A DNA stretch of 64,000 nt from a virus: IMG/VR virus record IMGVR_UViG_3300042397_000787, one strand, 5' to 3'. The notes below the pieces were generated by a model, which made no database searches, was not told the origin of the DNA, and saw only the letters and a program-made list of their open reading frames with translations. The translations under genes were made by a program, and so were the position numbers. Below are positions 38,098-63,584 of the stretch, piece after piece. Position 1 is the stretch's first letter. Every line of letters begins with the position of its first letter.

Positions 38098-38156
38098 GAT
38101 GATTCTCTTTCTTTTCTCTTACTATACCAATATACACGATTCGCAGGGAATGTCAA
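38098..38156 (-). promoter_or_regulatory. Early promoter cassette
   Basis: TTGACA-TTCCCTGC-GAATC-GTG-TATATT...GAGAATC. Confidence 0.8.
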
Positions 38157-38359
38157 GCGGTATTTTGAAGAATTCTATTGCGCTTTGTGAGGCTATAACC
38201 ATCTTCGTACCATGGTGCATCGTCTGGTGTGATGAGTTCGGTATAACGAATGCCCGCTTGGACACGCATGTAATTCCAGAACTTACGAGCATCTTCGAAG
38301 TTATCGAACAGCTTGTCCTTAAGGGAATAGTTGTAATAGCGATATTGGACCTTATACAT
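38153..38359 (-). CDS. Hypothetical early protein
   Basis: Preceded by the GAGAAAGTGATTCGTT leader. Confidence 0.65.
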   Translation of the reverse strand: MYKVQYRYYNYSLKDKLFDNFEDARKFWNYMRVQAGIRYTELITPDDAPWYEDGYSLTKRNRILQNTA

Positions 38360-38418
38360 AACGAATCACTTTCTCTCTGACTTCTATTTCACTATAGCAG
38401 AACCAGTAGTAATGTCAA
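38360..38418 (-). promoter_or_regulatory. Early promoter cassette
   Basis: TTGACA...GCTATA...GTCAGAGAGAAAGTGATTCGTT-ATG. Confidence 0.8.
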
Positions 38419-38520
38419 CCATTCATTTCAGCTAACCAAGTGATTGATTCATTAGAGTTATTCTTTAGTCGCTACACTCCTTTATAACACATGGCAAGTG
38501 ATTCGTCAAGAGAAAAACAT

Positions 38521-38552
38521 AAAAAAGGTCCCCGAGTCGAAACCCGAGGACC
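38521..38552 (-). terminator. Intrinsic terminator
   Basis: GGTCCTCGGG-TTTCGA-CTCGGGGACC-TTTTTT. Confidence 0.8.
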
Positions 38553-38581
38553 AGTGTGTGACCTAGAGAAAGGAAGTAAAA

Positions 38582-38746
38582 CTAGGTCATGATGAAACGC
38601 TGTGGCATACGCTTGTTGATAAAGCTAGTGGCATATTGCTCAACCGCATGCTTGGAACCCTTTCGGTCCGCTACCCAGGAACCGTTAACGTATAGGTCCA
38701 GCAGGTAGGTACCAGGCTTTATCTTCGTAATGGTATAGTCTCGCAT
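38582..38746 (-). CDS. Hypothetical early protein
   Basis: AGGAG RBS before MRDYTITK. Confidence 0.55.
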   Translation of the reverse strand: MRDYTITKIKPGTYLLDLYVNGSWVADRKGSKHAVEQYATSFINKRMPQRFIMT

Positions 38747-38973
38747 GGTGGTTCTCCTAGTGAGGGTTACCGAACCGTTATGATTCGTATTATCTATAAT
38801 ATAACACAAAGGCACCATGGTGTCAAGTAAAAAATGCGCGGCGGTGCCGAGGAGGAGGGAATTGGCCGAGGATTAAGACCAGGTTATATGGTCGCTAATA
38901 TGCTCTGGTGGCGTGGTCTAGTTCATGGACACTGGAATCTGAATATTATACTAATAGTTAGTGGGATTTACTA

Positions 38974-39013
38974 ACCCCAGTTCAACCCAGTGTAACCCAG
39001 TGTCAACCCCAGT
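38974..39013 (+). repeat. Short tandem repeat AACCC(C)AGT x4
   Basis: aaccccagttcaacccagtgtaacccagtgtcaaccccagt. Confidence 0.7.
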
Positions 39014-39206
39014 CTAGTTGTTCTCTCACCACTGGTACAATGACTGTCTTGTCATCTTCTCTTATAGCTTTATGGGTTGCTTCTCTCTCTGTGATATACT
39101 TACCATACTGGTGATTGGTATATCCTAGTTCATTCTCTATAAGATAATTGTTACTCATTACACAAGGATGACCAATATAACGATGATTGCTACTACTAAT
39201 GACCAT
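39003..39206 (-). CDS. Hypothetical protein
   Basis: ORF track; operon orientation. Confidence 0.45.
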   Translation of the reverse strand: MVISSSNHRYIGHPCVMSNNYLIENELGYTNHQYGKYITEREATHKAIREDDKTVIVPVVREQLDWG

Positions 39207-39717
39207 TCTACTGGTCCATAGTCTTTGATGATTTCTTTAATAAATTTAATCAAAATTGATACTCCACCCAATAGTGTGCTGTTTTACCACTGGACCATGT
39301 TACCTTACTACCTCTATATCTCTTATATGGAATAAGAGGTGTTTCGGTTGGTAGTGGTAGTTTCTTCCATTCTTTCTCTGTCATACTGTTATCTCTCTAT
39401 ACAAAAATAATGAAAAATTGTTCATTTCGGCCGTGTGGTGATCATATAATTGGTACACTAATAGAGGTCTTTTGCCATTGCTCTTCACCATTATCCTCTG
39501 ACAATAGCCTGTTCTCCTGTATCTTCTTTACCACTTTACCGGTTTGTTCGTCATACCAGTATTCTATGATTTCTTCACGGATTTTCTTCATTGTCCTCGG
39601 CCTTCTTCAATGCTTTTGCTGCAATATTGGCACAGGTATATCCGTGTCCATGGCCGTGTGAATGACCGAACTTCTCGATTTCTTTGAGGGCTTGTTCATA
39701 TACCTTCAGCAGTTCGG

Positions 39718-40167
39718 TCATTTGTTGGGTACCTGGGCTAGTAGTTCAAGATAGAATTGATTATACTTGGCCAGACGGGCGATATCCTTTTCGGTAACAC
39801 CCTTGAGGCGACGGATATCGGTGTTGTGGCGAAGGTCTGACATCTTCACTCTCATGGCATCTTCGTTGGCCATTACCTCTTGCTTGTATTGGTCATAGGA
39901 TTGACCTGGCATCTTGGTGAGTGCGGAGACTGCGGCTAGAACACGTTCGGTGCAACCAATGGCGCGTAGGTCGTCCCAGGTGGTATCGGTATCTTCGATA
40001 ACGTCATGAAGCAATGCGATGCACTGGAGTTCTTCGTCTGTTGTCTTGAGGTAATGCATCACCTTCATTGGGTGAAGGATGTATGGGTTACCACCGCGGT
40101 CAAACTGACCTGCATGGGCATTCGTGGCTAGGACGAGGACTTTACCGAGTAGTTCACCTTTTTTCAT
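39718..40167 (-). CDS. HD-domain (p)ppGpp hydrolase-like protein (SpoT-HD/Mesh1)
   Basis: AHAGQ.D..G.PYI.HP, ALLHDVIEDT, VK.SD..HN. Confidence 0.85.
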   Translation of the reverse strand: MKKGELLGKVLVLATNAHAGQFDRGGNPYILHPMKVMHYLKTTDEELQCIALLHDVIEDTDTTWDDLRAIGCTERVLAAVSALTKMPGQSYDQYKQEVMANEDAMRVKMSDLRHNTDIRRLKGVTEKDIARLAKYNQFYLELLAQVPNK

Positions 40168-40222
40168 AATCAAATCTCTTTCTCTATATTATTATAGTAG
40201 ACGATTCGAGACCAAATGTCAA
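40168..40222 (-). promoter_or_regulatory. Early promoter cassette
   Basis: TTGACA-TTTGGTCTC-GAATC-GTC-TACTAT. Confidence 0.75.
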
Positions 40223-40259
40223 GTAAAAAGGTGAGAAACTTTAGTTCGATAGGAGAAAA

Positions 40260-41252
40260 TTATTTTCCATGCATAGTCCCTGAACCTTTAACACCGGAAA
40301 GGGGATCCGATTGGCTGTTATATTTCATTCTGTGTTGTGCGAACTTTTTACCTTTATAATAAAAGGAAATTGCTGCGCCAGAACGTTCTGTTTTTAAATT
40401 GATATGTTTAGGATCTGCTAGAATGTGTTCATGGTGTGCAGCAGGATCGATGGCATGTGTGGAGTGATTGCCATATGTGGTATGACGTATATGGTTGTGT
40501 CCTGCTTGCTGAAGTGGGGTGGCATGTGCATGAAGAACATGATTTCGAATATGAGTTACCAAGTCTTCATGAGTACCTGAAGTTAAGTGTTTATGCATAT
40601 GTTCTGCAATGCTGTGCAATACATGGGCATTTTGTCGCTTGATTTCCGCATGTGCTTCCGGATTAGCCTTTGCCCACTCTTTACGACTGGCCGCATTTGT
40701 TAGGTTCTTTAGTTCTGGATGTTGTTTTTTGATATTCTCACGGTGTGCAGCCAAAATCTTTTCGCCGCCATGAGTTGATTCCATACCTGGATTAGATACA
40801 GGAACGTGACCGGTGTTACTGTCCGTCACTTTTAGACTTATACCGTGATGTTTTCCATGTTTGTCTGATACCATGACATCAGAGGCGTCTTGCTTTTGAG
40901 TAGAATGAATACCAGTTGATCTATGAATGTCGCCCGGCTTCGAGGTCCAATGAACATGCTTTATTGGATGACCAATTCGCTTTTTAATATCATCAGCCGC
41001 AGCCTTTGCTCTATCATTAATTTTTTTATAGTTCTCGTGGGACATTGTAGACTTTAACTGGTCATGAGCTTCTTTAGGTGAATGTCCGTTTACATCATGG
41101 TGTTTTTCCATGTGGTTGCCGCCATTTAGATGATAGCCAGTTAATAGTTCATGCATAACACCTTTAGTGTTTGCACTAACAGTATTATGGGTCTCTGTGG
41201 CTTCTGATAGATAAAACCAATGTAAATCATTCCACTGGGCAAACGATATCAT
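40260..41252 (-). CDS. His-rich protein, probable head-internal protein; possible PD-(D/E)XK fold
   Basis: N-terminal MISF...YLSE capsid-targeting-like leader; ASDVMV...GISLK. Confidence 0.55.
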   Translation of the reverse strand: MISFAQWNDLHWFYLSEATETHNTVSANTKGVMHELLTGYHLNGGNHMEKHHDVNGHSPKEAHDQLKSTMSHENYKKINDRAKAAADDIKKRIGHPIKHVHWTSKPGDIHRSTGIHSTQKQDASDVMVSDKHGKHHGISLKVTDSNTGHVPVSNPGMESTHGGEKILAAHRENIKKQHPELKNLTNAASRKEWAKANPEAHAEIKRQNAHVLHSIAEHMHKHLTSGTHEDLVTHIRNHVLHAHATPLQQAGHNHIRHTTYGNHSTHAIDPAAHHEHILADPKHINLKTERSGAAISFYYKGKKFAQHRMKYNSQSDPLSGVKGSGTMHGK

Positions 41253-41543
41253 ATTATTCTCCTTGAATACTTATATTTATTCAAGCGAAATTCTTACGCC
41301 GAACCACCATAAATCTACACGAAAGAACCAGCGCCCGTTGTGCTTACCGAAGCCTATACGGAGCATACGGTTGTCGGCGTCAAGAGACAGGCGTGAAAAG
41401 GTCATCTAATGCTATCTTCTTGAGGTTGTTGCTTTTCATATCACGAAGAATACTCGCCGCTGGTCCAGCACCGGGCCCGGGCCACTCTCGTTCAAGCCTC
41501 TGCGCACACTCCTCAATAACGGCATCCCTGGCTTCCTTATCCA

Positions 41544-43103: not shown

Positions 43104-43105
43104 GG

Positions 43106-44012: not shown

Positions 44013-44023
44013 AATAAAACTCC

Positions 44024-44194
44024 TCAATCAAAAAAATTACCAAGAGCCCAACGGTAGTTGAGTATCGAACCATTTGCCATCCAGGCACCCTGTGGCAGGC
44101 TACCGAACGTCTTGTTGGCTTTTTCCATTGCTTCACCCATACGGGCGGCTTCAACGACAATCTTCTTACCGTTTGCTTCAAATTGATATTTCAT
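44024..44194 (-). CDS. Hypothetical early protein (56 aa; not in ORF track)
   Basis: MKYQFEANGKK...; directly after the cassette leader. Confidence 0.65.
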   Translation of the reverse strand: MKYQFEANGKKIVVEAARMGEAMEKANKTFGSLPQGAWMANGSILNYRWALGNFFD

Positions 44195-44256
44195 AACGAA
44201 TCACTTTCTTTTCACTGACTACTATCTAACAATAGCAGGATTTACCAGAATGTCAA
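44195..44256 (-). promoter_or_regulatory. Early promoter cassette
   Basis: TTGACA...GCTATT...GTAGTCAGTGAAAAGAAAGTGATTCGTT-ATG. Confidence 0.8.
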
Positions 44257-44264
44257 CCCCTAAA

Positions 44265-44501
44265 TTAATAGAGGTTGCGAATATCTTCTATGTTGAAGAG
44301 GGCCTGACGAACGGCAATCTTAGCAATCGAAAACTGGTGCGTAGGAGCATCACTCGCTTTTGGGTAATATTCCATCAGAACGTTGTTTACGCAAGCGTTG
44401 ATGTCACTGGAACCAATCTCTTCGGCGTCATCAAACATCCACAGGACATGCTCGGCTACAACACGGTCAAACTTCTCAACGTTTTCTAAAATATCAATCA
44501 T
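44265..44501 (-). CDS. Hypothetical early protein
   Basis: Follows the cassette leader. Confidence 0.65.
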   Translation of the reverse strand: MIDILENVEKFDRVVAEHVLWMFDDAEEIGSSDINACVNNVLMEYYPKASDAPTHQFSIAKIAVRQALFNIEDIRNLY

Positions 44502-44563: not shown

Positions 44564-44570
44564 GCAATCA

Positions 44571-44777
44571 TTACACCACAGCAGGAAAGGCTTTCGCAGC
44601 AAGGGCAGCATCAGCCACTGGCATCGCCAGCACGGCTTCGTTGGCATAGAGCCGCATCAAACCATCGGGCTTCAAGAGCCATACTGCTTTCTGAGGCTCT
44701 GGGTTGTTGTACCAGACCCGAACAGGGACATCATCAAGAACGACAACTAGGTTAAGGGCAGGCTGGGCAACTATCAT
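44571..44777 (-). CDS. Hypothetical early protein
   Basis: Follows the cassette leader. Confidence 0.65.
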   Translation of the reverse strand: MIVAQPALNLVVVLDDVPVRVWYNNPEPQKAVWLLKPDGLMRLYANEAVLAMPVADAALAAKAFPAVV

Positions 44778-44839
44778 TTCGAATCACTTTCTCTCACTGA
44801 CTACATTATTAAATATAGCAGATTCGCAAGGAAAGTCAA
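44778..44839 (-). promoter_or_regulatory. Early promoter cassette
   Basis: TTGACT-TTCCTTGC-GAATC-TGC-TATATT...GAAAGTGATTCGAA-ATG. Confidence 0.85.
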
Positions 44840-44847
44840 GCGGTATT

Positions 44848-45591
44848 TTACCTCTGAGGTATTTCCGCTAAGATTTCTTCATACATACCATTTACATCGG
44901 CCTCAGGTAGAAGCTCCAGTGACGCTTCGATTTGGCGAATGACAAATGCGTCCACTTCCTTCTGGGTCATGCCATCATAGATATCACCTGCAATGGCAGT
45001 AATCTTCATTTCTTGTGTAATCTCTGACATAAAAATATTCCTGTATTGTTCTACCACATCACTCCATGTGATAGGGTTATTCGAATCATATGATGAGTCC
45101 ACTGGGCGTAAAGACATTACCCACCGCTCGGTGTCACCCACCTTTATACCGTGATATGTGGTGGTGTCCATGAGTAGCGGCCTATCGCTTGGGCATACTA
45201 CGCAATCAACCTCTACCACCTCGCGGTCTGGGTATTGGGTGACCGCTGGTGTGCCATCCGCGTTCTCATACCACATAAGCCGCGAGGACTCGCAGCCTTG
45301 TAACGTATAGTTGATTGCATAGATATACCCACGGTCTGGTGGGAAGTAGTCCTTATGCACAGGAGGCATCAATTCCTGGCTACGTGGCTCTCGCACAAAC
45401 ACAAACGAGGTGCTTGTCATAGGCACAGGAAACTTGGCTAGCCACTCCTCATTGAATACATCCGCATTATTGATAATGAATAGTCTGTAGCCATTGGTGT
45501 CCACAAATGGTTGTAGGGACTGGCAATGCGCAATAGGATCTACCTTGTATGCACCGTCCAGTGGTATATCAAGAACGTGGCTATGCTTCAT
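44848..45591 (-). CDS. Hypothetical protein, possible cupin/2OG-Fe(II)-like fold
   Basis: HKD...AINY...YHGI...RWVMSLR pattern. Confidence 0.45.
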   Translation of the reverse strand: MKHSHVLDIPLDGAYKVDPIAHCQSLQPFVDTNGYRLFIINNADVFNEEWLAKFPVPMTSTSFVFVREPRSQELMPPVHKDYFPPDRGYIYAINYTLQGCESSRLMWYENADGTPAVTQYPDREVVEVDCVVCPSDRPLLMDTTTYHGIKVGDTERWVMSLRPVDSSYDSNNPITWSDVVEQYRNIFMSEITQEMKITAIAGDIYDGMTQKEVDAFVIRQIEASLELLPEADVNGMYEEILAEIPQR

Positions 45592-47257: not shown

Positions 47258-47504
47258 TAGGAAATACCAATCCAAATTGTTCAATCATCACATCACGGAC
47301 ACCCTCACGGTCAACCGAATCCAGTGCAAGGTTCTCATAGCCAACGCGGTTGGCGTAAATGTCGAAGGCGTCAAGGATTTGACGCGAGGTCGCACCCATA
47401 TCATACACACCACCTTCGGCGTAAAAGTCACCGACATAGACTAGGAAGTTACAAATCTCACGCACAACGCCTTGAATATTCATACCAACAGGTTCGACTC
47501 GCAT
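47247..47504 (-). CDS. Hypothetical early protein
   Basis: AAGGAG RBS; DSVDRE.VRD motif. Confidence 0.65.
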   Translation of the reverse strand: MRVEPVGMNIQGVVREICNFLVYVGDFYAEGGVYDMGATSRQILDAFDIYANRVGYENLALDSVDREGVRDVMIEQFGLVFPNEA

Positions 47505-47561
47505 AACAATCTCCTTTTTCACTCTATATTCTCATAATAGCAGATTCGCTAGGAATGTCAA
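47505..47561 (-). promoter_or_regulatory. Early promoter cassette
   Basis: TTGACA-TTCCTAGC-GAATC-TGC-TATTAT. Confidence 0.8.
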
Positions 47562-47570
47562 GCATTATTT

Positions 47571-47849
47571 TTAGTCGGTAGGATAAGGCAGGCGATGAGG
47601 CTGATTGACAAAATCGCGGGCAAAATCAAGGGCGCTTTCTGGCATATAGAATGACCGAGTATCTACCCACTCATCTTTCTCCCAATAGCGGACCAGATAT
47701 GCGGTGCGCCAAGGAGCAGTGGTCGTTTTATTCTCCACTTCCTCTGACCACACGATTGCTGTGCGGTCTACTACGGACCACTCATCAATGAAATCACCCC
47801 AATCACCGAGGCTCTGAATATATTCCAATGTTTCTTTAATGGTATACAT
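47571..47849 (-). CDS. Hypothetical early protein
   Basis: Follows a promoter cassette. Confidence 0.65.
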   Translation of the reverse strand: MYTIKETLEYIQSLGDWGDFIDEWSVVDRTAIVWSEEVENKTTTAPWRTAYLVRYWEKDEWVDTRSFYMPESALDFARDFVNQPHRLPYPTD

Positions 47850-47900
47850 AACTTCTCACTTTCTATAATCACTTATAGACGATTCGCAGGCAAATGTCAA
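47850..47900 (-). promoter_or_regulatory. Early promoter cassette
   Basis: TTGACA-TTTGCCTGC-GAATC-GTC-TATAAG. Confidence 0.8.
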
Positions 47901-48937
47901 GAAAATAAATGGTCCAATGTGACAGGTACAGCCTTCTCTGGCTTTTTTGAAAATACCATAATGCTCTCATCGGTATTGATATCTACCTTCGCACTGGGTC
48001 TGGTTATATTCTTTAGCGTAATGGACTCCACATAATAGAAGCCGAGACTTTCTGCAATGGCTCTAGTATCAGCGCATAACTTATAATTCAGGAAGTCCTT
48101 GATGTTGATTAGCATCTTGCCATCATCAATCAGATATTTTTTGATGTTTTCCAGAGTGGGTCTTAGATATGTATCTAGCCATTCCTGATATGTAGTACCA
48201 GGCTTAAATGACTGGTCACCAATTTTATAATCTTCTAGACTGAAATACGGCGGACTGCTAAATGCTACACCGATGGTGTTCTCCCACTCTGGAACAAATG
48301 TTTGAGAACCATGACACCGAATGTCATACTTTGCAGAGGTGCCATTCACTGTATTGTAGTCAGTGGCCATTTGGTTGAGGCGTTCTACTAGCAGATTGTT
48401 GGGGTCAGTGCCGTAATATTCCACTCGGTTTCTTAGGGACGAAAGCATCCTAACGCCCCAACCACACGAGAAGTCATAGTATTTACCATTGATATTATAC
48501 CTGAATAGGATATCGTCAACCGACTTAATTGGATAATTAGACGGCTTCATTGCAACACCACCGCCACTAAGCCGTAATGCGGCCTCAAAGTTCTCTATAT
48601 CAGAGTTGGTCTTTGGATATACCTTGTCACTAGAAAGCACCCTACTCCAGAAGTATCGAATCAAATCCATAGATTCGAATACTTCTTCTATTGACCAACG
48701 TGGAGACTCCAGCTTCACCTTGGCCATAAGGTCTTTTACATAGTAACTAGTAATGGTGCTTATGATAGTGCTACCATCATATACTGCTTTTAGGTTTTTG
48801 TTAACCAGTTCAAAATCAGGCTTTTCGTAATATGCGGCCTTCAATTCTAAGCACTTATCTTCTGGCAAATCATACCAGTGGTCGGTATTAAGTGTCTTGC
48901 CTAAATGGGTAATTTGGTATTTTTTACTTTTTCCCAT
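47897..48937 (-). CDS. DNA amino-methyltransferase (SPPY type)
   Basis: DFSCGWGVR, YYGTDPN, FSSPPYF..E.Y. Confidence 0.85.
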   Translation of the reverse strand: MGKSKKYQITHLGKTLNTDHWYDLPEDKCLELKAAYYEKPDFELVNKNLKAVYDGSTIISTITSYYVKDLMAKVKLESPRWSIEEVFESMDLIRYFWSRVLSSDKVYPKTNSDIENFEAALRLSGGGVAMKPSNYPIKSVDDILFRYNINGKYYDFSCGWGVRMLSSLRNRVEYYGTDPNNLLVERLNQMATDYNTVNGTSAKYDIRCHGSQTFVPEWENTIGVAFSSPPYFSLEDYKIGDQSFKPGTTYQEWLDTYLRPTLENIKKYLIDDGKMLINIKDFLNYKLCADTRAIAESLGFYYVESITLKNITRPSAKVDINTDESIMVFSKKPEKAVPVTLDHLFS

Positions 48938-48952: not shown

Positions 48953-49309
48953 TTAGGCAGCCTTCTGGTACGGTTTGTTCCACTGTCCAGCATTCACGTT
49001 AACGTACCAACCGACACAAAAGTAGTCGATTTGGGCGTTGCTGGTGTCGTGATTGCCATCATTCATGGCAGTCTTGATTTCTTCGAGGAAAGCCAGTTCC
49101 TTACCTTGATAGCTATCAGCCAACCAATACAGATTGACCTGGCTGTAGCCACGGTCATTGTTGGCAAGGTCTAGAGGACCTGACTTGAGGTTGAGAACAA
49201 GGGTGCTGTAGTTGCGAACCGCAAGACTACCCTTCATATTATATTTCTTGAGGACTGCTTTTACCTTAGGGGCAAGACGAGCCTTCTCACTTTGGTTCAT
49301 ATAAGCCAT
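48953..49309 (-). CDS. Conserved phage early protein
   Basis: MAYMNQ..., DYF.VGWY...G.WNKPY. Confidence 0.7.
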   Translation of the reverse strand: MAYMNQSEKARLAPKVKAVLKKYNMKGSLAVRNYSTLVLNLKSGPLDLANNDRGYSQVNLYWLADSYQGKELAFLEEIKTAMNDGNHDTSNAQIDYFCVGWYVNVNAGQWNKPYQKAA

Positions 49310-49371
49310 AACGAATCATTCCTTTCTCACTGACTACTTATTAAATATAGCAGATTCGTGAGGAAAGTCAA
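49310..49371 (-). promoter_or_regulatory. Early promoter cassette
   Basis: TTGACT-TTCCTCAC-GAATC-TGC-TATATT...GAATGATTCGTT-ATG. Confidence 0.85.
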
Positions 49372-49374
49372 GCA

Positions 49375-50052
49375 TTATTTTTTGTAGGCAGCATCTTCCT
49401 TCTTGCCGATAGGATTACGGACTTCGGCAGATGCTATCTTACGGATGTGCTTGTGAACCTGAGTGAGGCCATGCTCGTCGGTGTGGTCATTGTCCACAAT
49501 GTGCATATGTTCTGCGCCGAAATGCTTCTGGAAGTGGCCGATGTTGCCCTGCACTTGCTTGTGCATTCTCTCGACTTCATGGTGCGGCAGACTACGTTCG
49601 CGCTGGTCGTTGCGCTTCTTGGCTGTCTCTAGTGAGGTGTTTACGAATACCATGTGAGTATCGTAGCCTGCTTTACGTAGGCGTTCGGAGTGCTTTCTAA
49701 TCTTCTCCGGGTCTTTACCTGTGCCATCAATCACTAGACCAAGGCGACCTTTAACGTAATGGTGTTCACGCTTATGGGTTAGTTCCTTAGCATGGTCACG
49801 AATCTCTTGACCCTTCTTGGAGTAGACATTTTCAGGAGTGGCTTTCAGGCCATGCTTCTTCATACCCTTCTCGAATAGGTCATCCGAGTTGACTTGCTTG
49901 AAGCCAAGACCATGTGTGGTCTTCTTAGATACATAAGACTTACCTGAGCCGGGACCACCTGCTAGGAAGATAGCCTTACGTCTAGCTGGGTCATGGATAC
50001 CCTCATCTAGGACTTCTTCTACGAGGTTGATAAAATCGGCAAATGATAGCAT
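49375..50052 (-). CDS. Zeta-toxin-like P-loop kinase with capsid-targeting-like leader
   Basis: MLSFADF...LDEG; AGGPGSGKS, NSDD, VIDGTG, FVNTSLE.A..RN..R.R; TATAAATA at 50073-50080. Confidence 0.75.
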   Translation of the reverse strand: MLSFADFINLVEEVLDEGIHDPARRKAIFLAGGPGSGKSYVSKKTTHGLGFKQVNSDDLFEKGMKKHGLKATPENVYSKKGQEIRDHAKELTHKREHHYVKGRLGLVIDGTGKDPEKIRKHSERLRKAGYDTHMVFVNTSLETAKKRNDQRERSLPHHEVERMHKQVQGNIGHFQKHFGAEHMHIVDNDHTDEHGLTQVHKHIRKIASAEVRNPIGKKEDAAYKK

Positions 50053-50663: not shown

Positions 50664-51137
50664 TCAATTAGGTATCTTCTGCGTTGCACACCACTTGTGG
50701 TTCAACCCCACTTCGCGACCGTATGCTTCAATCTCCCAAGGAGCATCGAAATATGCATCTTCCTTACCCTTAGGCTTCCATATCTGGCCCATCCACTTGC
50801 TGTAGATTTTGAGACCACCACGAGCAGCCACCGCATGACCAGTCTGAAGTTCGTTCTTGGCATGTTGCTTGACATGGACCATTTCGTGACCGAGAACCTT
50901 GATCATCTCATCGATGTCTTGGTTCTTGAGACCAATGGTGAACCACCGTGGGTTCTTGGTGCCGTCCTCGTCAACGCACTCGCCCTCTAGGTCAAAGTTT
51001 TTCCAAACTTCGATATCAAGGGTGAGATTGCGGACCATGCGTGGGTCCATTAGTTGAGCGGCGAAGAATTCTGCTGCCTCGATCAACTTCTGCTTATCAG
51101 CGCGACGACCAATCAAACCTGTAACTGAAATATCCAT
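50664..51137 (-). CDS. Zincin-like metallopeptidase
   Basis: HEMVHVKQ, PWEIEAY; early promoter at 51165-51191. Confidence 0.7.
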   Translation of the reverse strand: MDISVTGLIGRRADKQKLIEAAEFFAAQLMDPRMVRNLTLDIEVWKNFDLEGECVDEDGTKNPRWFTIGLKNQDIDEMIKVLGHEMVHVKQHAKNELQTGHAVAARGGLKIYSKWMGQIWKPKGKEDAYFDAPWEIEAYGREVGLNHKWCATQKIPN

Positions 51138-51159
51138 AATAACCTCTTTCGCTTATAGA

Positions 51160-51191
51160 CTCACTATAAGCGATTCGTGACCAAATGTCAA
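51160..51191 (-). promoter_or_regulatory. Early promoter cassette
   Basis: TTGACA-TTTGGTCAC-GAATC-GCT-TATAGT. Confidence 0.75.
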
Positions 51192-51356
51192 GCGTTTTCT
51201 TCAAGCCATTCTATCTGGTGATTAGCTACCGTAATGGAAACTATGTTGCCGCCATCGTCCTCAAGGGTCAGGTCCACCCCAGTGGAGTTTTCTCTTGTCT
51301 TGGCCTCGTGGACGAAATAAATCTTACCAGCATGTTCCCAGCTGTCGTTGTCTATT

Positions 51357-52893: not shown

Positions 52894-53110
52894 TTTTATT
52901 CATTGCCTCCATAATTATATTTACGCGGTGCATCGCTTCTAGAATGCGAGTTATTGTAATTAGTAGCACACAACCTATCCACCATCCAAAAAACATGGCC
53001 TCTCCGATATGTGTTCCGCTAACGAAAAATTTAGTGGCTGCAATAAATGCGGCCAAGACAAAGCCCTTGAAACAATTATCAATAAACCAATTAGCTAAGG
53101 TTATGTTCAC
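52886..53110 (-). CDS. Small two-TM membrane protein
   Basis: Two hydrophobic segments. Confidence 0.55.
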   Translation of the reverse strand: MNITLANWFIDNCFKGFVLAAFIAATKFFVSGTHIGEAMFFGWWIGCVLLITITRILEAMHRVNIIMEAMNKND

Positions 53111-53291
53111 TCTTTAGTCTTTCAATTTCGGTTTTGATTTTTAGTTTGCGGCGCTTAATGGTATTTACCAGCCAGTCTTGAGGCTTCGGGCGCTGCATTA
53201 GAATTTCAAGACCTTCGTCTTGTTCTCGGTGTTTTTGTTCCAAGGCTCTGATATGGTTCAATACACTTTGTTTATCCATAATATACTCCAT
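53091..53291 (-). CDS. DUF465/YdcH-like small protein
   Basis: L..KH...D......KRRKLKIK.EI. Confidence 0.6.
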   Translation of the reverse strand: MEYIMDKQSVLNHIRALEQKHREQDEGLEILMQRPKPQDWLVNTIKRRKLKIKTEIERLKSEHNLS

Positions 53292-57989: not shown

Positions 57990-58159
57990 TAATTCAACTT
58001 TCCATCATAAGTTCGCAGCCAAGGCTGACCAAAGACATACTTGGCTTCTAGGTCATCAGCAACACCGTGCCAATACGCTTGAAACCATTCACTCTTAGCT
58101 TTATACGCTATTTCACGGCATTTGTCAATAGATTTAAATATCTTTGCATAATTAGTCAT
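57989..58159 (-). CDS. Hypothetical protein
   Basis: Coupled ORF (MTNYAK...). Confidence 0.45.
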   Translation of the reverse strand: MTNYAKIFKSIDKCREIAYKAKSEWFQAYWHGVADDLEAKYVFGQPWLRTYDGKLN

Positions 58160-58583
58160 TTTCTTTTGTTGCCTTATACAGCATGACATTCGCTTCTCTA
58201 AACATCAATTCGGTAATGTCCCAGTTAAACGTATCTTCTCGGTCAGATTTATAACAAATGACCTTCTTGATGCCGCGCTGGATGATGCTCTTGGCGCACT
58301 CGTTGCACGGCATCAAAGGTACATACATTGTGCAACCCTCAACCGACATGGGAGAGTTGTCTAGTGCATTGCGCTCGGCATGAGCCACAAACAGGTGCTT
58401 GGTGGGTCGGTCTTCGTAGCGTTTTGCCAGGTCCTTGACGCCACGCGGAAACCCATTGTAGCCTATTGAGATAATACGATTGCGGTCATCCACAATAACT
58501 GCACCAACTTTGGTGCGAGGATCATACGACCATTCGCCAATATGGTCGGCTAGGTCAAGAAACCTCTGACACCATTTAGACAT
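58152..58583 (-). CDS. cd: dCMP deaminase
   Basis: KVGAVIV, GYNGFPRG, HAERNA, PCNEC. Confidence 0.93.
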   Translation of the reverse strand: MSKWCQRFLDLADHIGEWSYDPRTKVGAVIVDDRNRIISIGYNGFPRGVKDLAKRYEDRPTKHLFVAHAERNALDNSPMSVEGCTMYVPLMPCNECAKSIIQRGIKKVICYKSDREDTFNWDITELMFREANVMLYKATKEND

Positions 58584-59102: not shown

Positions 59103-59244
59103 ATTTTTCTTCTTCCAACATAAGTGCAATACCAGCGATGAACATCATCATACCAAAAGCGGCTTGCAAGGCAAAACGAAGAAAACTAGCATCTTCAGGA
59201 ACACACATCACAAACAGACCGGCAAACAACAAAACATATTTCAT

Positions 59245-59305
59245 AACGAATCACTTTCTTTTCTCAGCTTATAATCTACTATAGCATATTCTGAGAAAAT
59301 GTCAA
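59245..59305 (-). promoter_or_regulatory. Early promoter cassette
   Basis: TTGACA...GCTATA...GAAAGTGATTCGTT-ATG. Confidence 0.8.
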
Positions 59306-59625
59306 GCGGTAATTTCATCAAAACCAAACGTAGCACAACGGAACAGTTTTCCGTCTACCTCGAGGATGTCGCCTACTGACATCGAGGAGCAGGGACCGAG
59401 TTTCTCAACCGTAGCACCTTCCCAAAGATTCATGGCAGCGAATGCTTCTTCCATATCATTGGTATCAACGTTAGCAACGTGGGCGTAATACTGGAAGTTC
59501 TCAGTCTTGAAGGGCGACATCGGCCACGAACGGTCAAAATACGCTTTGATGCGGTCACTGGTTTCGCCGTTATTTACAGCCGCGATTTCAGCATCGGTCA
59601 GTTGAATTTGGTACACCTTAATCAT
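59302..59625 (-). CDS. YodL-like early protein
   Basis: VYQI..., F...N, SMSVGDI...GF. Confidence 0.6.
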   Translation of the reverse strand: MIKVYQIQLTDAEIAAVNNGETSDRIKAYFDRSWPMSPFKTENFQYYAHVANVDTNDMEEAFAAMNLWEGATVEKLGPCSSMSVGDILEVDGKLFRCATFGFDEITA

Positions 59626-59687
59626 AACGAATCACTTTCTCTTTTCTGTCTACTATTACATCCTAGCAGATTCGCAGGGAAAGTCAA
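59626..59687 (-). promoter_or_regulatory. Early promoter cassette
   Basis: TTGACT-TTCCCTGC-GAATC-TGC-TAGGAT...GAAAGTGATTCGTT-ATG. Confidence 0.85.
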
Positions 59688-59844
59688 GTGCTAATTTACC
59701 AATGATGAATGACATTTGCCACAAGAAAAATGTTTGCGATAATGGCCTGACAAATCAGAAAGGTCCGAATCCATGCTATCTTGTCGGATTCGCTATTACA
59801 CGGAGAGGCTTTTTCACCTAAGGCTTTTGACCATATTCGCCACA

Positions 59845-60162: not shown

Positions 60163-60177
60163 ATTAACCTCGTTTAA

Positions 60178-60260
60178 TGGTAGGCACGGCGGGACTCGAA
60201 CCCGCAAGGTTTCCCGACGAATTTTAAGTCCGTTGCGTTTACCAATTTCGCCACGCGCCC
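60178..60260 (-). tRNA. tRNA-Leu(TAA)
   Basis: Cloverleaf with long variable arm, CT-TAA-AA loop, GTTCGAG, encoded CCA. Confidence 0.93.
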
Positions 60261-61147: not shown

Positions 61148-62031
61148 TAGCAGTCCATATATTGTTTAACTAATTCATCATTCAGCCCAAGTGATAGAAG
61201 CCATTCTGTATAGAACATACCAGTTTTACTCGGAAGGTTTTCTCTCACGGTTTTATGTAAGCCATGAGTTGGGCTGTTAATATTCAGGCATCTTTCAACA
61301 TCGTTTCTGATACTCTGATCATACCGTCCCTCTATCATATCAAAGGGACTGATTGCATTACATATAATATCTTTTTCTTCTGGTAGTTCATCAGGATCAA
61401 CATAGAACATATACGTATGAAACTCCGAGTTTGGAGTAACATCTTGATTTAGAAAGAGTGCTTCCAAATCAAAGTCTTCTGCCATTTGCTGAACTATTTT
61501 CTTCTCAAAGACAAATGGTGTTTCTAACAAACGACCAAACTTATCTGGTATTTGTTTACCAGAAATCTCACTGAAATATAATAGCCATCCTTGTATGATA
61601 TCATGGTTAGTACCAGTGAAAATTGTATCTCTAGTCAGATATGCACCATTACCATGCTTTACTGGCCAAGAATATAGGTCAGTGGGTCTAACAAATAAAT
61701 TTTTAGAATCTAGAACTAATGCATGGTCGCTTATAACATGATCACTGGTGGTAAGAAGTTTTAAGTATTGTTGCCTTCTCCAGCCATGCCCAAATCTACC
61801 CCAATCCGCAAAGACAGCATCCAAGGTGGGGTCTCTACGATAAGTATTTAATCTAAGGGTATGCTTTGTATAATACGGCGACAAGATATCTTGCCATTGA
61901 TCAAGCGAAAGATGTGTATCTTCTACCGTGACGAAATGTGTTATAGGCTTCTCAATAAACTTATCAATTGAATGTGCTTGTAGAAGAAGGTCTTGAATGT
62001 CTCTTTTACAAGCAATAGTAACTAAATCCAC
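61147..62031 (-). CDS. DUF6492-like protein, tandem paralog
   Basis: GWRRQQYLKL, VLDSKN.F.RP; near-identical N-terminus. Confidence 0.6.
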   Translation of the reverse strand: MDLVTIACKRDIQDLLLQAHSIDKFIEKPITHFVTVEDTHLSLDQWQDILSPYYTKHTLRLNTYRRDPTLDAVFADWGRFGHGWRRQQYLKLLTTSDHVISDHALVLDSKNLFVRPTDLYSWPVKHGNGAYLTRDTIFTGTNHDIIQGWLLYFSEISGKQIPDKFGRLLETPFVFEKKIVQQMAEDFDLEALFLNQDVTPNSEFHTYMFYVDPDELPEEKDIICNAISPFDMIEGRYDQSIRNDVERCLNINSPTHGLHKTVRENLPSKTGMFYTEWLLSLGLNDELVKQYMDC

Positions 62032-62044
62032 AATTATCTCCTAA

Positions 62045-62122
62045 TGGGGTGAATGACGGGACTCGAACCCGCGACATTCGGCATCACAAGCCGACACTCT
62101 AACCAACTGAGCTACATCCACC
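62045..62122 (-). tRNA. tRNA-His(GTG) with G-1 and C73
   Basis: G-GTGGATG...TT-GTG-AT...CATTCAC-C-CCA. Confidence 0.93.
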
Positions 62123-62143
62123 ATACTCAGGAATACTTATAAC

Positions 62144-62232
62144 TGGCGGAACATCAGGGAGTCGAACCCTGTATACCCTTTAGAGGTATTACGCATTAGC
62201 AGTGCGTTGCATTACCGTCCTGCCCATGTTCC
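62144..62232 (-). tRNA. tRNA-Ser(GCT)
   Basis: CT-GCT-AA loop, long variable arm, G73-CCA. Confidence 0.92.
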
Positions 62233-62238
62233 TAAAAT

Positions 62239-62313
62239 TGGTAGCCCGAACGGGTTTCGATCCCGCTTCTCCGCCTTGAAAGGGCGGTGTCCTAGCCACT
62301 AGACGACCGGGCC
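62239..62313 (-). tRNA. tRNA-Glu(TTC)
   Basis: CT-TTC-AA loop, CCA. Confidence 0.9.
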
Positions 62314-62316
62314 ATT

Positions 62317-62391
62317 TGGAGCGGAAGAGCGGATTCGAACCGCCGACCATCTCGTTGGCAACGAGAAGCTCTACCACTGAGCTACTTCCGC
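62317..62391 (-). tRNA. tRNA-Gly(GCC)
   Basis: TT-GCC-AA loop, U73-CCA. Confidence 0.93.
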
Positions 62392-62395
62392 ATTA

Positions 62396-62473
62396 TGGAG
62401 CGCCGAGCCGGATTCGAACCGGCGGTTTTACGGATTTGCAATCCGTTGCGATGGACCACTCCGCCATCGGCGC
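62396..62473 (-). tRNA. tRNA-Cys(GCA)
   Basis: TT-GCA-AA loop, U73-CCA. Confidence 0.92.
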
Positions 62474-62474
62474 T

Positions 62475-62546
62475 TGGTACCAGCAGGTGGTAATGATCCA
62501 CCCAAACTAACCTTATGAGAGTCAGTCGAACACCTGTTCTACTGGT
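62475..62546 (-). tRNA. Atypical tRNA(CAT) with non-canonical D and T loops
   Basis: ACCAGTA/TGCTGGT acceptor stem, CT-CAT-AA loop, T-loop ATCATTA, CCA. Confidence 0.65.
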
Positions 62547-62547
62547 G

Positions 62548-62623
62548 TGGTGCGAATAACAGGAATTGAACCTGTGACCTTTCCCTTATCAGGGGAATGC
62601 TCTACCATCTGAGCTATATTCGC
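62548..62623 (-). tRNA. tRNA-Ile(GAT)
   Basis: CT-GAT-AA loop, CCA. Confidence 0.93.
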
Positions 62624-62629
62624 ATCTTA

Positions 62630-63073
62630 TCAATTAAATAACTTTTCTAAGTCCTTGAGAGGAATTATGCAGTTACTATATTGATTTGTTAAATCTGGTC
62701 CTTTTTTAAATATCAATCTTATTTTTGGAAATGATAGAATATCACATATAATATAATTCATAGTGGAGGAATGTTCTATAGCTTTTTCTTCATTAAAAAC
62801 TCTTCCGCCGCCAAAATTTATAGATTGCATAAATCTACATCCAGACTTTGTAAAACATTTCTGTTCATATTTCTGGCCGTCGGTCAAACTAACATGATCA
62901 TGACCTCTGGCATTTACATATTGCAAATCTGGAAACCATTTCTCAATCATTATTTCCAGAAATTTTGAGGCTATTCTTCCATCTTTAAACATTCTATTCA
63001 ATTCAGACTCTTGTAGTATATCAAATGATATATTTTCAAGTTCAAAATAATATGTTTTGTCAAATACTATCAT
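62630..63073 (-). CDS. AT-rich ORF within the tRNA array, possible PD-(D/E)XK endonuclease
   Basis: E...GHDH...KYEQKCF pattern; GAGG RBS. Confidence 0.5.
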   Translation of the reverse strand: MIVFDKTYYFELENISFDILQESELNRMFKDGRIASKFLEIMIEKWFPDLQYVNARGHDHVSLTDGQKYEQKCFTKSGCRFMQSINFGGGRVFNEEKAIEHSSTMNYIICDILSFPKIRLIFKKGPDLTNQYSNCIIPLKDLEKLFN

Positions 63074-63087
63074 TATAACCTCAATAT

Positions 63088-63163
63088 TGGTGGACACTTT
63101 GGGGTTCGAACCCAAGACCTACAGGTTAAAAGCCCGTTGCTCTACCTACTGAGCTAAGTGTCC
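63088..63163 (-). tRNA. tRNA-Lys(TTT)
   Basis: CT-TTT-AA loop, CCA. Confidence 0.93.
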
Positions 63164-63169
63164 GTGAAA

Positions 63170-63245
63170 TGGTAGACGATGTAGGATTCGAACCTACGAC
63201 CTAAGGATTAAGAGTCCCGCGCTCTACCGACTGAGCTAATCGTCC
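63170..63245 (-). tRNA. tRNA-Lys(CTT)
   Basis: CT-CTT-AA loop, CCA. Confidence 0.93.
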
Positions 63246-63253
63246 ATTAAATT

Positions 63254-63328
63254 TGGTAGACGAGGAGGGACTCGAACCCCCAACCTAACCGTTATGAGCG
63301 GTCGGCTCTACCATTGAGCTACTCGTCT
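63254..63328 (-). tRNA. tRNA(CAT), probably Ile2 (lysidine type) or elongator Met
   Basis: ACCG-CT-CAT-AA-CGGT anticodon arm, CCA. Confidence 0.88.
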
Positions 63329-63524
63329 ATATGTAGACCCGAACACGATCGGAATCTACAGGAGCACCGACCACTCGACGCTCTATGTAGTAATAATCTA
63401 TGAAATGATCGCCGTCACGGGTATACACACCGTGGGCAGCCCGCGCTTCATCTTCAGATGCATACACACCCAACAGCAACGAACCTTCGTAATCCCATTC
63501 ACCTAACAATGCAAAAACTTCCAT
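63327..63524 (-). CDS. Hypothetical early protein
   Basis: Follows the cassette leader; DYEG..LLGVYAS. Confidence 0.65.
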   Translation of the reverse strand: MEVFALLGEWDYEGSLLLGVYASEDEARAAHGVYTRDGDHFIDYYYIERRVVGAPVDSDRVRVYI

Positions 63525-63584
63525 GACGAATCACTTTCTCTCTGACTATATTCTCATAATAGCTGATTCGCCGGTAAATGTCAA
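63525..63584 (-). promoter_or_regulatory. Early promoter cassette (probably also drives the tRNA array)
   Basis: TTGACA-TTTACCGGC-GAATC-AGC-TATTAT...GAGAAAGTGATTCGTC-ATG. Confidence 0.85.

Follow-up and report, generated by a model that had tools for sequence, protein, structure and literature searches.

What does a GANTC-containing word do at a fixed place in the early promoters of a phage? The source is an uncultured, T4-like (Kyanoviridae-like) lake phage, and the region studied is its hyperplastic early region; the window is the whole analysed stretch of 64,000 nucleotides. The early genes are fired by about 15 strong host sigma70-type promoters, with further ones elsewhere in the genome. 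The original prediction named 15 promoters and tied them to GcrA and CcrM methylation of the host. Every one of these promoters is present on the predicted strand, and 12 of them (9174, 24756(+), 38156, 40222, 44563, 44839, 47561, 47900, 49371, 51191, 59687, and 63584) fit TTGAC(A/T)-N8-9-GAATC-N3-(-10). The prediction that this box usually reads CGAATC is accurate (10 of the 12). The other three have near-misses at the box position: GGTTC (38418), AATCC (44256), and GAATA (59305). A 13th boxed promoter, 10702, had been overlooked; a further pattern match at 25760 lies inside a cyclase gene and is probably due to chance. A second site had been predicted in eight leaders, and TGATTCG was indeed found 3 nt before the ATG in eight, with AGAATCA in a ninth (38156). 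Orthologous promoters of a complete sister genome served as the reference for comparison. The promoters are:

63522..63594, minus strand: boxed cassette; -35 at 63584-63579, CGAATCA (GAATC 63569-63565), -10 TATTAT at 63561-63556, leader TGATTCG (GATTC 63532-63528), ATG at 63524; drives a 65-aa ORF, then a tRNA array (63328-62045)
59623..59697, minus strand: boxed cassette; -35 at 59687, CGAATCT (GAATC 59673-59669), TGC-TAGGAT, leader TGATTCG, ATG at 59625 (107 aa)
59242..59315, minus strand: unboxed cassette; GAATA in place of the box, leader TGATTCG retained; sister ortholog also unboxed (GGTTG)
51135..51201, minus strand: boxed cassette (51191); 17-bp spacer, CGAATCG (GAATC 51176-51172), -10 TATAGT, GAGTC immediately past the -10, ordinary Shine-Dalgarno (GAGG); drives a 157-aa ORF and, after it, nucleotidase-like and kinase-like genes
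49307..49381, minus strand: boxed cassette (49371); CGAATCT (GAATC 49357-49353), leader TGATTCG, ATG at 49309; drives a 118-aa ORF, then the SPPY DNA methylase gene
47847..47910, minus strand: boxed cassette; CGAATCG (GAATC 47885-47881), -10 TATAAG; drives a 92-aa ORF
47502..47571, minus strand: boxed cassette (47561); CGAATCT (GAATC 47547-47543), leader GGAGATTGTTATG without GANTC; drives a small ORF, then an ATP-dependent DNA ligase
44775..44849, minus strand: boxed cassette; CGAATCT (GAATC 44825-44821), leader TGATTCG, then AA and ATG; 68 aa
44499..44573, minus strand: boxed cassette (44563); AGAATCT (GAATC 44549-44545), leader TGATTCG; 78 aa; GAATC retained in the sister ortholog despite a spacer change from 16 to 17 bp
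44192..44266, minus strand: unboxed cassette; AATCC in place of the box, leader TGATTCG retained; ortholog also unboxed
40165..40232, minus strand: boxed cassette (40222); CGAATCG (GAATC 40207-40203); drives an HD-domain phosphohydrolase gene; the sister genome lacks an ortholog of its downstream gene
38744..38836, minus strand: promoter without a -20 box; CGAATCA at about +6 to +10 (GAATC 38786-38782), 40 nt before the ATG; the sister genome retains this word, with different flanks
38357..38428, minus strand: unboxed cassette; GGTTC in place of the box, leader TGATTCG retained; 68 aa
38095..38166, minus strand: boxed cassette (38156); CGAATCG (GAATC 38142-38138), leader copy flipped (AGAATCA, 3 nt before the ATG; CGAATCA in the sister genome)
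35724..35784, minus strand: comparison promoter; no box and no leader word, AGGAG Shine-Dalgarno, unboxed in both genomes; drives a sugar/DNA-glycosylation operon
24756..24800, plus strand: boxed promoter; -35 at 24756-24761, CGAATCG (GAATC 24771-24775), -10 TATAAC; drives a 67-aa ORF (24798-25001)
10608..10712, minus strand: boxed promoter (10702); GGAATCT (GAATC 10688-10684), -10 TATAAT; drives a DenV-like gene; box kept in the sister genome
9138..9184, minus strand: boxed promoter (9174); CGAATCA (GAATC 9160-9156), -10 TTATAA; drives a PD-(D/E)XK exonuclease gene, whose mRNA is probably leaderless because the ATG lies only 6 nt past the -10

The cassettes are near-identical and recombination-prone. 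Each begins with an A-rich upstream tract, continues with TTGACA, a spacer of 16-17 bp and TATAnT (in many cases preceded by TGn), and closes with some 30 nt of leader before the start codon; about two-thirds hold CGAATC at -21/-20 to -16. In other respects they resemble the mobile PeSL (promoter-early stem-loop) cassettes of T4-like phages (Arbiol 2010, PMC2839356; Comeau 2014, PMC4122927). PeSLs, too, are composite repeats that unite an AT-rich tract, an early promoter close to the sigma70 consensus, a Shine-Dalgarno, and a start codon; they are found in hyperplastic regions beside small orphan ORFs, at places where close relatives differ by indels or replacements. In PeSLs a conserved stem-loop precedes the promoter, whereas folds of the 90 nt upstream of 15 promoters gave no common hairpin here, and an additional selected spacer word has not been described for PeSLs. 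The fixed position of the sites was confirmed, TTGACW-N8-9-GAATC being seen 14 times as against 0.22 ± 0.46 in shuffles. Of 212 unique sigma70-type promoters (the window plus 74 related loci), 90 have GANTC on the upstream side of the -10 at a distance of exactly 3 bp (-20..-16), where about 0.6 would be expected from site density. GANTC overall is mildly depleted in the window, not enriched (185 vs. 251 ± 14), and the ratio in the sister genome (0.79) is similar to that of many other palindromes. The density of GAWTC is 4.9-5.4 per kb in intergenic DNA vs. 1.6-1.9 per kb in coding DNA. Grouped by their common 6-mer, the boxes read CGAATCN (67), CGATTCG (10), or AGATTCG (3). The base after GATTC is G in 14 of 16 boxes; after GAATC it is G in only 24 of 73. 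CGAATC, or GATTCG when read from the opposite strand, is the word that is recognised, in either orientation. In 89 of the 90 boxes the centre is A or T, which makes the word GAWTC, with a flanking G/C, rather than GANTC. The same word recurs at about +6 and about +20.

Between the sister genomes, orthologous promoters are 95% identical in the -35, 90% in the -10, 51% in the left spacer (the 8 bases beside the box), and 62% in the N3. GAATC is kept in 10 of 11 boxed orthologous promoters, even across a change of spacer length, while the adjoining spacer is only 51% identical; the box is thus a selected cis element and not a passenger. In boxed pairs the box is about 98% identical, and the comparison shows purifying selection on CGAATC as strong as on the -35 and -10 hexamers. 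Four unboxed promoters remain unboxed in the sister genome, and the two genomes show boxed and unboxed promoters to be stable classes. We consider it very probable that the box is a selected promoter element read by a protein.

The leader copy always lies 3 nt from the ATG; the standard copies, every one of which is TGATTCG, lie 23-26 nt from the -10, and flipped copies place CGAATC 0-3 nt before the ATG. The leader word falls within a Shine-Dalgarno-like stretch, in which GUGAUUC pairs over its full length with the 16S end GGAUCAC (with one G-U pair; the complementarity is inferred from the universal 16S 3' end). Shine-Dalgarno sequences of the AGGTGAT type were also found at genes outside the cassettes. 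Since it helps to form an extended Shine-Dalgarno, always 3 nt away from the AUG, the leader copy is conserved at least partly for translation. The flipped leader copies and the +6 copy, 40 nt from its ATG, cannot be Shine-Dalgarno sequences. T4 RegA operators (PMC3014915) offer a parallel: the leader word directly adjoins the AUG, UUCGUUAUG/AUUGUUAUG is similar to the SELEX consensus AAAAUUGUUAUGUAA, and RegA is encoded in the sister genome (E = 9e-48); however, RegA sites are A+U-rich and loosely defined (PMC3014915). The word is absent from the leader of regA itself (aaaggtggtagaaaATG), unlike in T4-type autoregulation. RegA was ruled out as the reader of the -20 and +6 copies, as these are untranscribed or distant from the AUG.

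The word and its positions agree with published GcrA preferences for TGATTCG/YGAKTCK and for site peaks at -20, -30, +8, and +18 (PMC4647560; PMC5887438). The phage positions are -20, about +6, and about +20. Like the Caulobacter crescentus promoters that GcrA activates and CcrM methylates (Haakonsen 2015, PMC4647560; Wu 2018, PMC5887438), these are sigma70-type promoters with a 7-bp asymmetric GANTC word (TGATTCG/YGAKTCG) at most 40 bp from the start site, near -20 or downstream near +8/+18, and only a subset of promoters has it. GANTC occurs within 40 bp of the start site in 12 of the 15 listed promoters and in 90 of the 212. YGAKTCK is matched by 49 of the 90 boxes and YGAKTCG by 45, and the standard leader copies all read TGATTCG, the top motif of GcrA; 33 of the 90 boxes are AGATTCG, with A for the consensus Y, which counts against GcrA. 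In contrast to the bacterial regulon, the phage box is much more strictly placed (exactly 3 bp from the -10), and its promoters are phage early promoters. The restriction of its centre to W is a further difference that counts against GcrA, since GcrA accepts G there and CcrM any base. Near-cognates that cannot be methylated also persist (GAATT in the RNA contig of a relative, AAATC, GAATA), and these too count against GcrA.

Neither gene of such a system was found in the phage. PF07750 (GcrA) is absent from the complete sister genome and from the 64 early ORFs of the window, and the sole PF01555 match has SPPY, unlike the CcrM type (DPPY, beta-class):

47897..48937, minus strand: phage DNA methylase; motif I (DFSCGWG) precedes the SPPY motif (motif IV)

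SPPY motifs are typical of N4-cytosine enzymes. A CcrM/HinfI-type identity was rejected on the basis of SPPY and of motif I lying ahead of motif IV. Relatives of the methylase are found in Twort-like staphylococcal phages, no relative was found in the PDB, and the gene lies at a different place in the sister genome. The phage also encodes a DNA-type glycosyltransferase cluster. A gcrA homologue in phiCbK and CcrM-like methylases in Sinorhizobium phages are precedents; the phage studied here has neither type of gene. Another precedent for phage expression wired to a host cell-cycle regulator is provided by the CtrA-box promoters of alphaproteobacterial phages, although both the regulator and the site (TTAA-N7-TTAA) are different (Mascolo 2022, PMC9437464). 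The same published scan of alphaproteobacterial phages found no positional bias of GcrA sites (PMC9437464). Unlike the phage studied, five cultured alphaproteobacterial phages of GcrA hosts (Cr30, phiM12, phiM9, PAU, and Atu_ph07) lack the arrangement, which counts against GcrA. In favor of GcrA, the box is absent in relatives with GcrA-less hosts, HTVC008M (SAR11) and Melnitz (OM43). Melnitz has a distinct conserved spacer palindrome (TTTGTT..AACATG) in about 15 promoters; lineage-specific spacer elements thus exist in this phage group without GcrA.

Two phage RNAs give indirect and mixed clues to the host. The first is:

62045..62122, minus strand: tRNA-His(GUG); templated G-1 (62122), G1-C72, C73, encoded CCA

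These features make up the canonical identity set. The HisRS type of Caulobacter, Rhizobiales, Rhodobacterales, and SAR11 hosts does not fit a canonical tRNA-His, and G-1, G1-C72, and C73 therefore argue against such hosts (PMC3937112; PMC3064791). The two-piece (permuted) tmRNA is a trait of the phage lineage and is not diagnostic of the host. As a sign of an alphaproteobacterial host it fails, since Melnitz, whose OM43-clade host is gammaproteobacterial, has a two-piece tmRNA of the alpha type as well as curli genes (PMC9004378). Short BLAST matches of the tmRNA are mostly in GcrA-negative Pseudomonadota (GcrA-positive: 4 of 54 matching vs. 104 of 401 searched genomes).

It is highly improbable that the box is itself functionless and is simply carried along in copies of one ancestral cassette homogenised by recombination. 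The cassettes do share about 70 nt, including non-essential positions such as TAGTCAG; however, in these same cassettes the contrast in identity between the box and its 8 flanking bases, the survival of the box through changes of spacer class, and its presence in promoters without the other cassette parts (9174, 10702, 24756, 40222, and 51191) speak against it. Very unlikely, too, is a DNA-transaction site, either a crossover or nicking site by which cassettes move (PeSL-type shuffling) or a target of the phage methylase or DNA-modification system. Cassettes do bound indels: the RNA contig of the relative joins 47518 to 47891, dropping the 92-aa ORF between two cassettes, and gene order and content differ from the sister genome at cassette borders. 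The phage does have a methylase and the glycosyltransferase cluster, but nothing ties the SPPY enzyme to GAWTC, homologous recombination between 70-bp cassettes requires no special site, and the fixed 3-bp distance to the -10 points to transcription.

Direct contact with host RNA polymerase (sigma region 3 or the beta-prime zipper), or a DNA-shape effect on it, would need no separate factor. The spacer word would then make the promoters very strong, and the leader word would simply be an extended Shine-Dalgarno. Polymerase does touch the spacer just upstream of an extended -10, the box at -20..-16 is directly upstream of TGn-TATAnT, and the 16S complementarity, the distance fixed to the ATG and not to the -10, and the AGGTGAT-type sequences elsewhere all fit. 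We nevertheless hold this to be improbable: a fixed polymerase contact could not tolerate a box in either orientation with its flank flipped, the +6 word and the flipped copies by the ATG can be explained neither by spacer contacts nor as Shine-Dalgarno sequences, and a third of equally good-looking promoters have no box. Less easily set aside, if still somewhat doubtful, is another dedicated reader: a phage early or middle protein shutting boxed early promoters off, a protein co-injected with the DNA, or a host factor other than GcrA. Such a reader would block or modulate RNA polymerase from each of the three positions (spacer, +6, and +20), and the likeness to GcrA sites would be coincidental. 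The stable, separate classes are what differential regulation predicts, Melnitz has its own spacer element on a GcrA-less host, the tRNA-His and tmRNA do not favor a GcrA host, and no AsiA/MotA-type switch is known from this group of phages. On the other hand, no DNA-binding family was detected among the 64 early ORFs at E ≤ 0.01, though most are orphans; for a classical dimeric repressor, an asymmetric site of 6-7 bp that works either way round is unusually short; and the identity with the GcrA optimum TGATTCG, together with the match in positions, would have to be chance, a random 6-mer box containing GANTC about once in 100 or less.

In our best explanation, CGAATC would be the DNA operator of a small, probably monomeric protein bound beside sigma70 region 2/3, which would have to be present already at the moment of DNA entry. 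Among known readers, a GcrA-type cofactor for CcrM-methylated GANTC would fit best. Taken as a whole, with the GcrA identity of the reader included, this explanation is a tentative one that we rate as possible rather than probable, and its link to host GcrA is unproven. The proposed wiring of early transcription to GcrA and methylation is supported only in part: the sigma70-type promoters with a fixed, selected, GANTC-containing box are there, while the missing phage gcrA and ccrM, the canonical tRNA-His, and the W centre speak against it. The proposed shut-off through hemimethylation by replication would be weak, because methylation shifts the affinity of GcrA for double-stranded DNA just 1.4- to 1.7-fold (PftsZ and PmipZ probes). 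If the explanation is true, GcrA-producing hosts would give the boxed early promoters a boost.

The word CGAATC or GAATC in the spacer of sigma70-type early promoters (the box) is far more frequent than chance allows: TTGACW-N8-9-GAATC occurs 14 times in the window against 0.22 expected. The original prediction listed 15 promoters, 12 of them with this arrangement; this holds, the other three carry one- or two-base near-misses at the equal position, and an additional boxed promoter, previously missed, was found at 10702. The repeated cassette consists of an A-rich tract, (G)CTTGACW, the spacer, CGAATC, three bases (often TGC, an extended -10), TATAnT, and about 30 nt ending in GAGAGAAAGTGATTCGTTATG. 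The window and 74 related loci were also scanned with a generic promoter definition that made no mention of GANTC. GANTC began exactly at -20 in 90 of 212 unique promoters (GAATC 73, GATTC 16, GACTC 1), and a second pile-up was observed at +18 to +21. The observation is confirmed and widened to a large group of uncultured phages. The fixed position of GANTC was borne out; over the genome as a whole, GANTC does not stand out: the ratio to expectation is 0.79, comparable to CATG or TTAA, and avoidance of GTAC, GATC, GGCC, AAGCTT, and AGCGCT is far stronger. In intergenic DNA, GANTC is 2.5 to 3.4 times denser.

Boxed promoters serve the tRNA array and small orphan ORFs, along with genes for a ligase, a methylase, an HD hydrolase, and an exonuclease, and a DenV-like gene. 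Promoters lacking the box serve a sugar/glycosylation operon (35774) and a radical-SAM operon (24741). One boxed promoter has an unusual layout:

Window 9138-9184, minus strand: boxed promoter of the PD-(D/E)XK exonuclease gene, -10 TTATAA, ATG starting 6 nt later

This short distance makes a leaderless exonuclease mRNA probable. G001, the sister genome (IMG/VR; complete, 171,566 bp, 75-89% identical, circularly permuted relative to the window), has the same layout. Four G001 promoters, at about 82517, 84808, 153707, and 156718 (plus strand), have one more GAATC, set two bases ahead of the -35 (GAATCAC/GC-TTGACA); it is missing from the orthologous window promoter 47561.

The flanks of the box are CGAATCN (67), CGATTCG (10), and AGATTCG (3). 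Of 90 boxes, 89 have A or T at the centre. The base after GATTC is G in 14 of 16 cases, as against only 24 of 73 for GAATC. The recognised unit is an asymmetric 6-mer, CGAATC, or GATTCG on the opposite strand. In most leaders it recurs about 20 nt past the start site, in the form TGATTCG (the leader copy). In a few leaders the copy is flipped, with CGAATC 0-3 nt ahead of the ATG, and promoter 38826 has CGAATCA at about +6, 40 nt from the ATG, conserved in G001 although its flanks differ. That an asymmetric 6-7 bp word is used in either orientation and on both sides of the start site suggests that its reader is a small DNA-binding protein acting as a monomer; a fixed polymerase contact, or a dimeric repressor of the classical kind, fits less well.

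The leader copy lies 3 nt from the ATG in 17 of 18 cases, but anywhere within 23-26 nt of the -10. In 16S rRNA, the 3'-end segment GGAUCAC stands immediately upstream of CCUCC; GUGAUUC would be complementary to it with one G-U pair. Variant leaders read AAAGGUGAUUC and UGGAGUGAUUC. Shine-Dalgarno sequences of the AGGTGAT type are also found at genes outside cassettes, one of which has AGGTGATTCGAAATG in full without a promoter ahead of it. The leader element UUCGUUAUG resembles the SELEX consensus of T4 RegA (PMC3014915); RegA is encoded in G001, and the leader word is absent from regA's own leader. The leader copy is at least in part a translation signal. The predicted second site is present, but its fixed spacing to the ATG and 16S complementarity make it equivocal as evidence for a site read at the DNA level, for which the flipped copies and the +6 copy argue better. 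A leader hairpin (AGUCA-UGAUU) was rejected because leaders with AGACA or AGCUG keep UGAUU, with no compensating change.

Fourteen window promoters were matched to their G001 orthologs via the downstream gene.

Identity of promoter segments between the window and G001 orthologs
10 nt upstream of the -35: 64%
-35 hexamer: 95%
Spacer, left part: 51%
Three bases separating box and -10: 62%
-10 hexamer: 90%

GAATC was kept in 10 of 11 boxed promoters, counting promoter 9174, whose G001 ortholog has the box; the single loss is a one-base change to AAATC. Several boxes were kept even where the spacer goes from 16 to 17 bp. Four promoters are unboxed in both genomes, and in these the box position diverges freely; boxed and unboxed promoters are thus stable classes. 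That the box is a neutral passenger of a repeated cassette is extremely unlikely, since it was retained beside a spacer that has diverged to about half identity. The box is very probably a selected promoter element read by a protein.

GcrA, the alphaproteobacterial cofactor that reads CcrM-methylated GANTC, is a monomeric cofactor of sigma70 region 2 with a preference for TGATTCG (YGAKTCK/YGAKTCG); a site at most 40 bp from the start site defines its regulon, and its site positions peak at -20, -30, +8, and +18 (PMC4647560, PMC5887438). The phage word and its three positions agree well with these preferences, YGAKTCG being matched by half of the boxes. Host GcrA acting on CcrM-methylated DNA is the best single candidate for the reader, although rather less likely than not. 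We know of no other described factor that recognises a 7-bp word at such promoter positions; an unrelated phage or host protein as reader is nonetheless only rather unlikely, and no DNA-binding families were detected among 64 early-region ORFs in a family search at E <= 0.01. A "DNA binding protein" PHROG match at 10062-10610 was rejected as a regulator because it is a DenV-like glycosylase. An element intrinsic to polymerase recognition, combined with a Shine-Dalgarno leader, would suit the translational features of the leader copy, but the use of the word in both orientations speaks against a fixed polymerase contact, and we consider this combination improbable. A role of the box as a DNA-transaction site is very improbable. 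It had also been proposed that hemimethylation produced by replication shuts off early genes. Methylation shifts the affinity of GcrA for double-stranded DNA just 1.4- to 1.7-fold (PftsZ and PmipZ probes), and with so modest a dependence such a shut-off, itself speculative, would be weak.

Cultured phages were searched with the pattern TTGAC-N9-11-GANTC-N3-TAnnnT.

Hits of the control pattern in cultured phages
HTVC008M (host SAR11): 0
S-RSM4 (cyanophage, host Synechococcus): 0
phiM9 (host Sinorhizobium): 0
phiM12 (host Sinorhizobium): 0
Cr30 (host Caulobacter): 0
PAU (host Sphingomonas): 0
Atu_ph07 (host Agrobacterium): 0
Melnitz (host OM43): 1

Absence of the arrangement from phages of hosts without GcrA is consistent with the GcrA hypothesis; its absence from five phages of GcrA hosts leaves that hypothesis without a positive control. 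Cr30 (NC_025422.1 1-50000, piece L090) is T4-like and infects the model GcrA host; its early promoters, also T4-like, read (A/C)TTTACTT-N16-17-TAtAgT, often with GGTT near the start codon and without a fixed GANTC; a TTGAC scan found no TTGAC promoter family. In phiM12, GAAT(T/C) words occur at a nearby but variable position, mostly as non-methylatable GGAATTT. Melnitz (MZ577097.1, piece W02) has a conserved early-promoter spacer at about 15 sites, e.g., 66590 and 73149, of the form TTGACW-TTTGTTMTNAWAACATG-TATAMT, with a TGTT/AACA inverted repeat. A related phage carries a lineage-specific spacer element that differs from the box.

Searches with an 8-kb piece and with a single cassette found no cultured-phage relatives at the nucleotide level. 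The window encodes the T4-type core proteins gp32, gp59, baseplate hub, and PhoH; its gp32 is about 57% identical to that of Methylophilales phage Melnitz, Pelagibacter phage HTVC008M, and cyanomyoviruses. Also present are a permuted tmRNA, ten tRNAs, curli-type genes, and a CHASE2 cyclase. A typical cyanophage was rejected, as psbA was not found in G001. The 36-64 kb region is a series of small minus-strand ORFs resembling the hyperplastic early region of T4-type phages. It further codes for an NT5C-type nucleotidase, a zeta-toxin/AAA_33 kinase-like protein, an AMP-binding enzyme, and the following (the first two hits were assigned to ORFs by eye):

Window 53094-53291, minus strand: DUF465-like 66-aa coiled-coil protein
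Window 58155-58583, minus strand: dCMP deaminase
Window 47897-48937, minus strand: SPPY DNA methylase; ortholog at G001 126441-127426 in a different neighbourhood

In G001 the methylase is followed by an ORF with the start region AGGTGATTCGAAATG and no promoter in front. The search for a phage-borne gcrA or ccrM came out negative: gcrA was not found in G001 or among the early ORFs of the window, and the sole DNA methylase has the motif SPPY, has relatives in staphylococcal phages, and is not CcrM-like. A loose PF01555 search missed the G001 methylase ortholog, so such family searches can yield false negatives. G001 strongly avoids AAGCTT and AGCGCT (0 observed against about 21 expected for each), as well as AGATCT, GCATGC, GCTAGC, CTGCAG, GTAC (0.35), GATC (0.47), and GGCC (0.47). 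The avoidance resembles an imprint of host restriction systems and could aid host identification.

The GcrA reading hinges on the host, and the host evidence overall is not favourable. GcrA and CcrM are absent from Pelagibacter. The two-piece tmRNA (tag ANDNVAFAGYALAA) is alphaproteobacterial in appearance. Melnitz, on gammaproteobacterial OM43, has a two-piece tmRNA of the alpha type and curli genes absent from its host (PMC9004378), which makes this tmRNA a property of the phage lineage and not a host marker. The phage also encodes a tRNA-His:

Window 62045-62122, minus strand: tRNA-His of the canonical type (templated G-1, G1-C72, C73, encoded CCA)

A tRNA-His with A73 and without G-1 is used in Rhizobiales, Rhodobacteraceae, Caulobacterales, Hyphomonadaceae, and seven of eight SAR11 strains; the HisRS of Caulobacter leaves the canonical form uncharged (PMC3937112, PMC3064791). 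The phage tRNA-His would be a poor substrate in Caulobacter-, Rhizobium-, or SAR11-type hosts; if it is used, the host would belong to Rhodospirillales, Sphingomonadales, or Rickettsiales, or would not be alphaproteobacterial. The first gene of Sinorhizobium phage phiM12 codes for a Thg1-like tRNA-His guanylyltransferase (piece L078).

BLAST against 401 Pseudomonadota labelled by GcrA presence (104 positive) gave only matches of about 30 nt for the tmRNA, to the conserved 3' end of one-piece tmRNAs in mostly GcrA-negative genomes. Results for the tRNA array were mixed, with two candidates scored per genome: best matches were GcrA-positive for tRNA-Met and GcrA-negative for the Gly-Glu tandem and tRNA-His, including G-1. 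One of the genomes tallied for GcrA (G386) is unpublished, and nothing stated here depends on it. Over about 143 nt, counting the spacer, the tRNA-Gly/tRNA-Glu tandem (window 62239-62391, minus strand) shares 79-81% identity with tandems of two GcrA-negative Pseudomonadota (G082, G074), a possible clue to a donor or host lineage. The epimerase gene had only distant Butyrivibrio and Vibrio matches among species genomes, and a protein-atlas search with the CHASE2 cyclase returned viral clusters only. Of the proposed GcrA wiring, the word and its positions stand, but the assumption of an alphaproteobacterial host is not supported by the tRNA-His, tmRNA, and BLAST results. Possibly, widespread uncultured aquatic T4-like phages have fixed a GcrA docking word in most immediate-early promoters, with as host an alphaproteobacterium that uses canonical tRNA-His, e.g., of the Sphingomonadales or Rhodospirillales.

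The cassettes share an AT-rich tract, an early promoter close to the consensus, a Shine-Dalgarno sequence, and a start codon with PeSLs, the mobile early-promoter stem-loop cassettes of T4-like phages (PMC2839356, PMC4122927); both lie in hyperplastic regions and mark indels, but the present cassettes have no stem-loop. In a relative, a freshwater metatranscriptome contig joins 47518 to 47891, which removes the 92-aa ORF that lies between two cassettes and yields a single hybrid promoter with GAATT, not GAATC, as its box. This deletion is a cassette-bounded indel of the PeSL type. The metatranscriptome data are assembled contigs that break at repeated cassettes, so start sites are not obtainable from them.

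Early promoters have to be read by host machinery that the phage has not yet modified. A further word kept in them by selection hence points to a factor, of the host or injected, on which the phage depends, or to which it listens. If GcrA reads the box, the first minutes of infection would be gated by the epigenetic and cell-cycle state of the host, this would be the first phage regulon resting on a host m6A reader, and the box would be a sequence-only host-range marker for uncultured phages. We know of no early-to-middle switch in the abundant Melnitz/pelagimyophage-like group; if another protein is the reader, the box would mark a novel early-promoter regulator in these phages.
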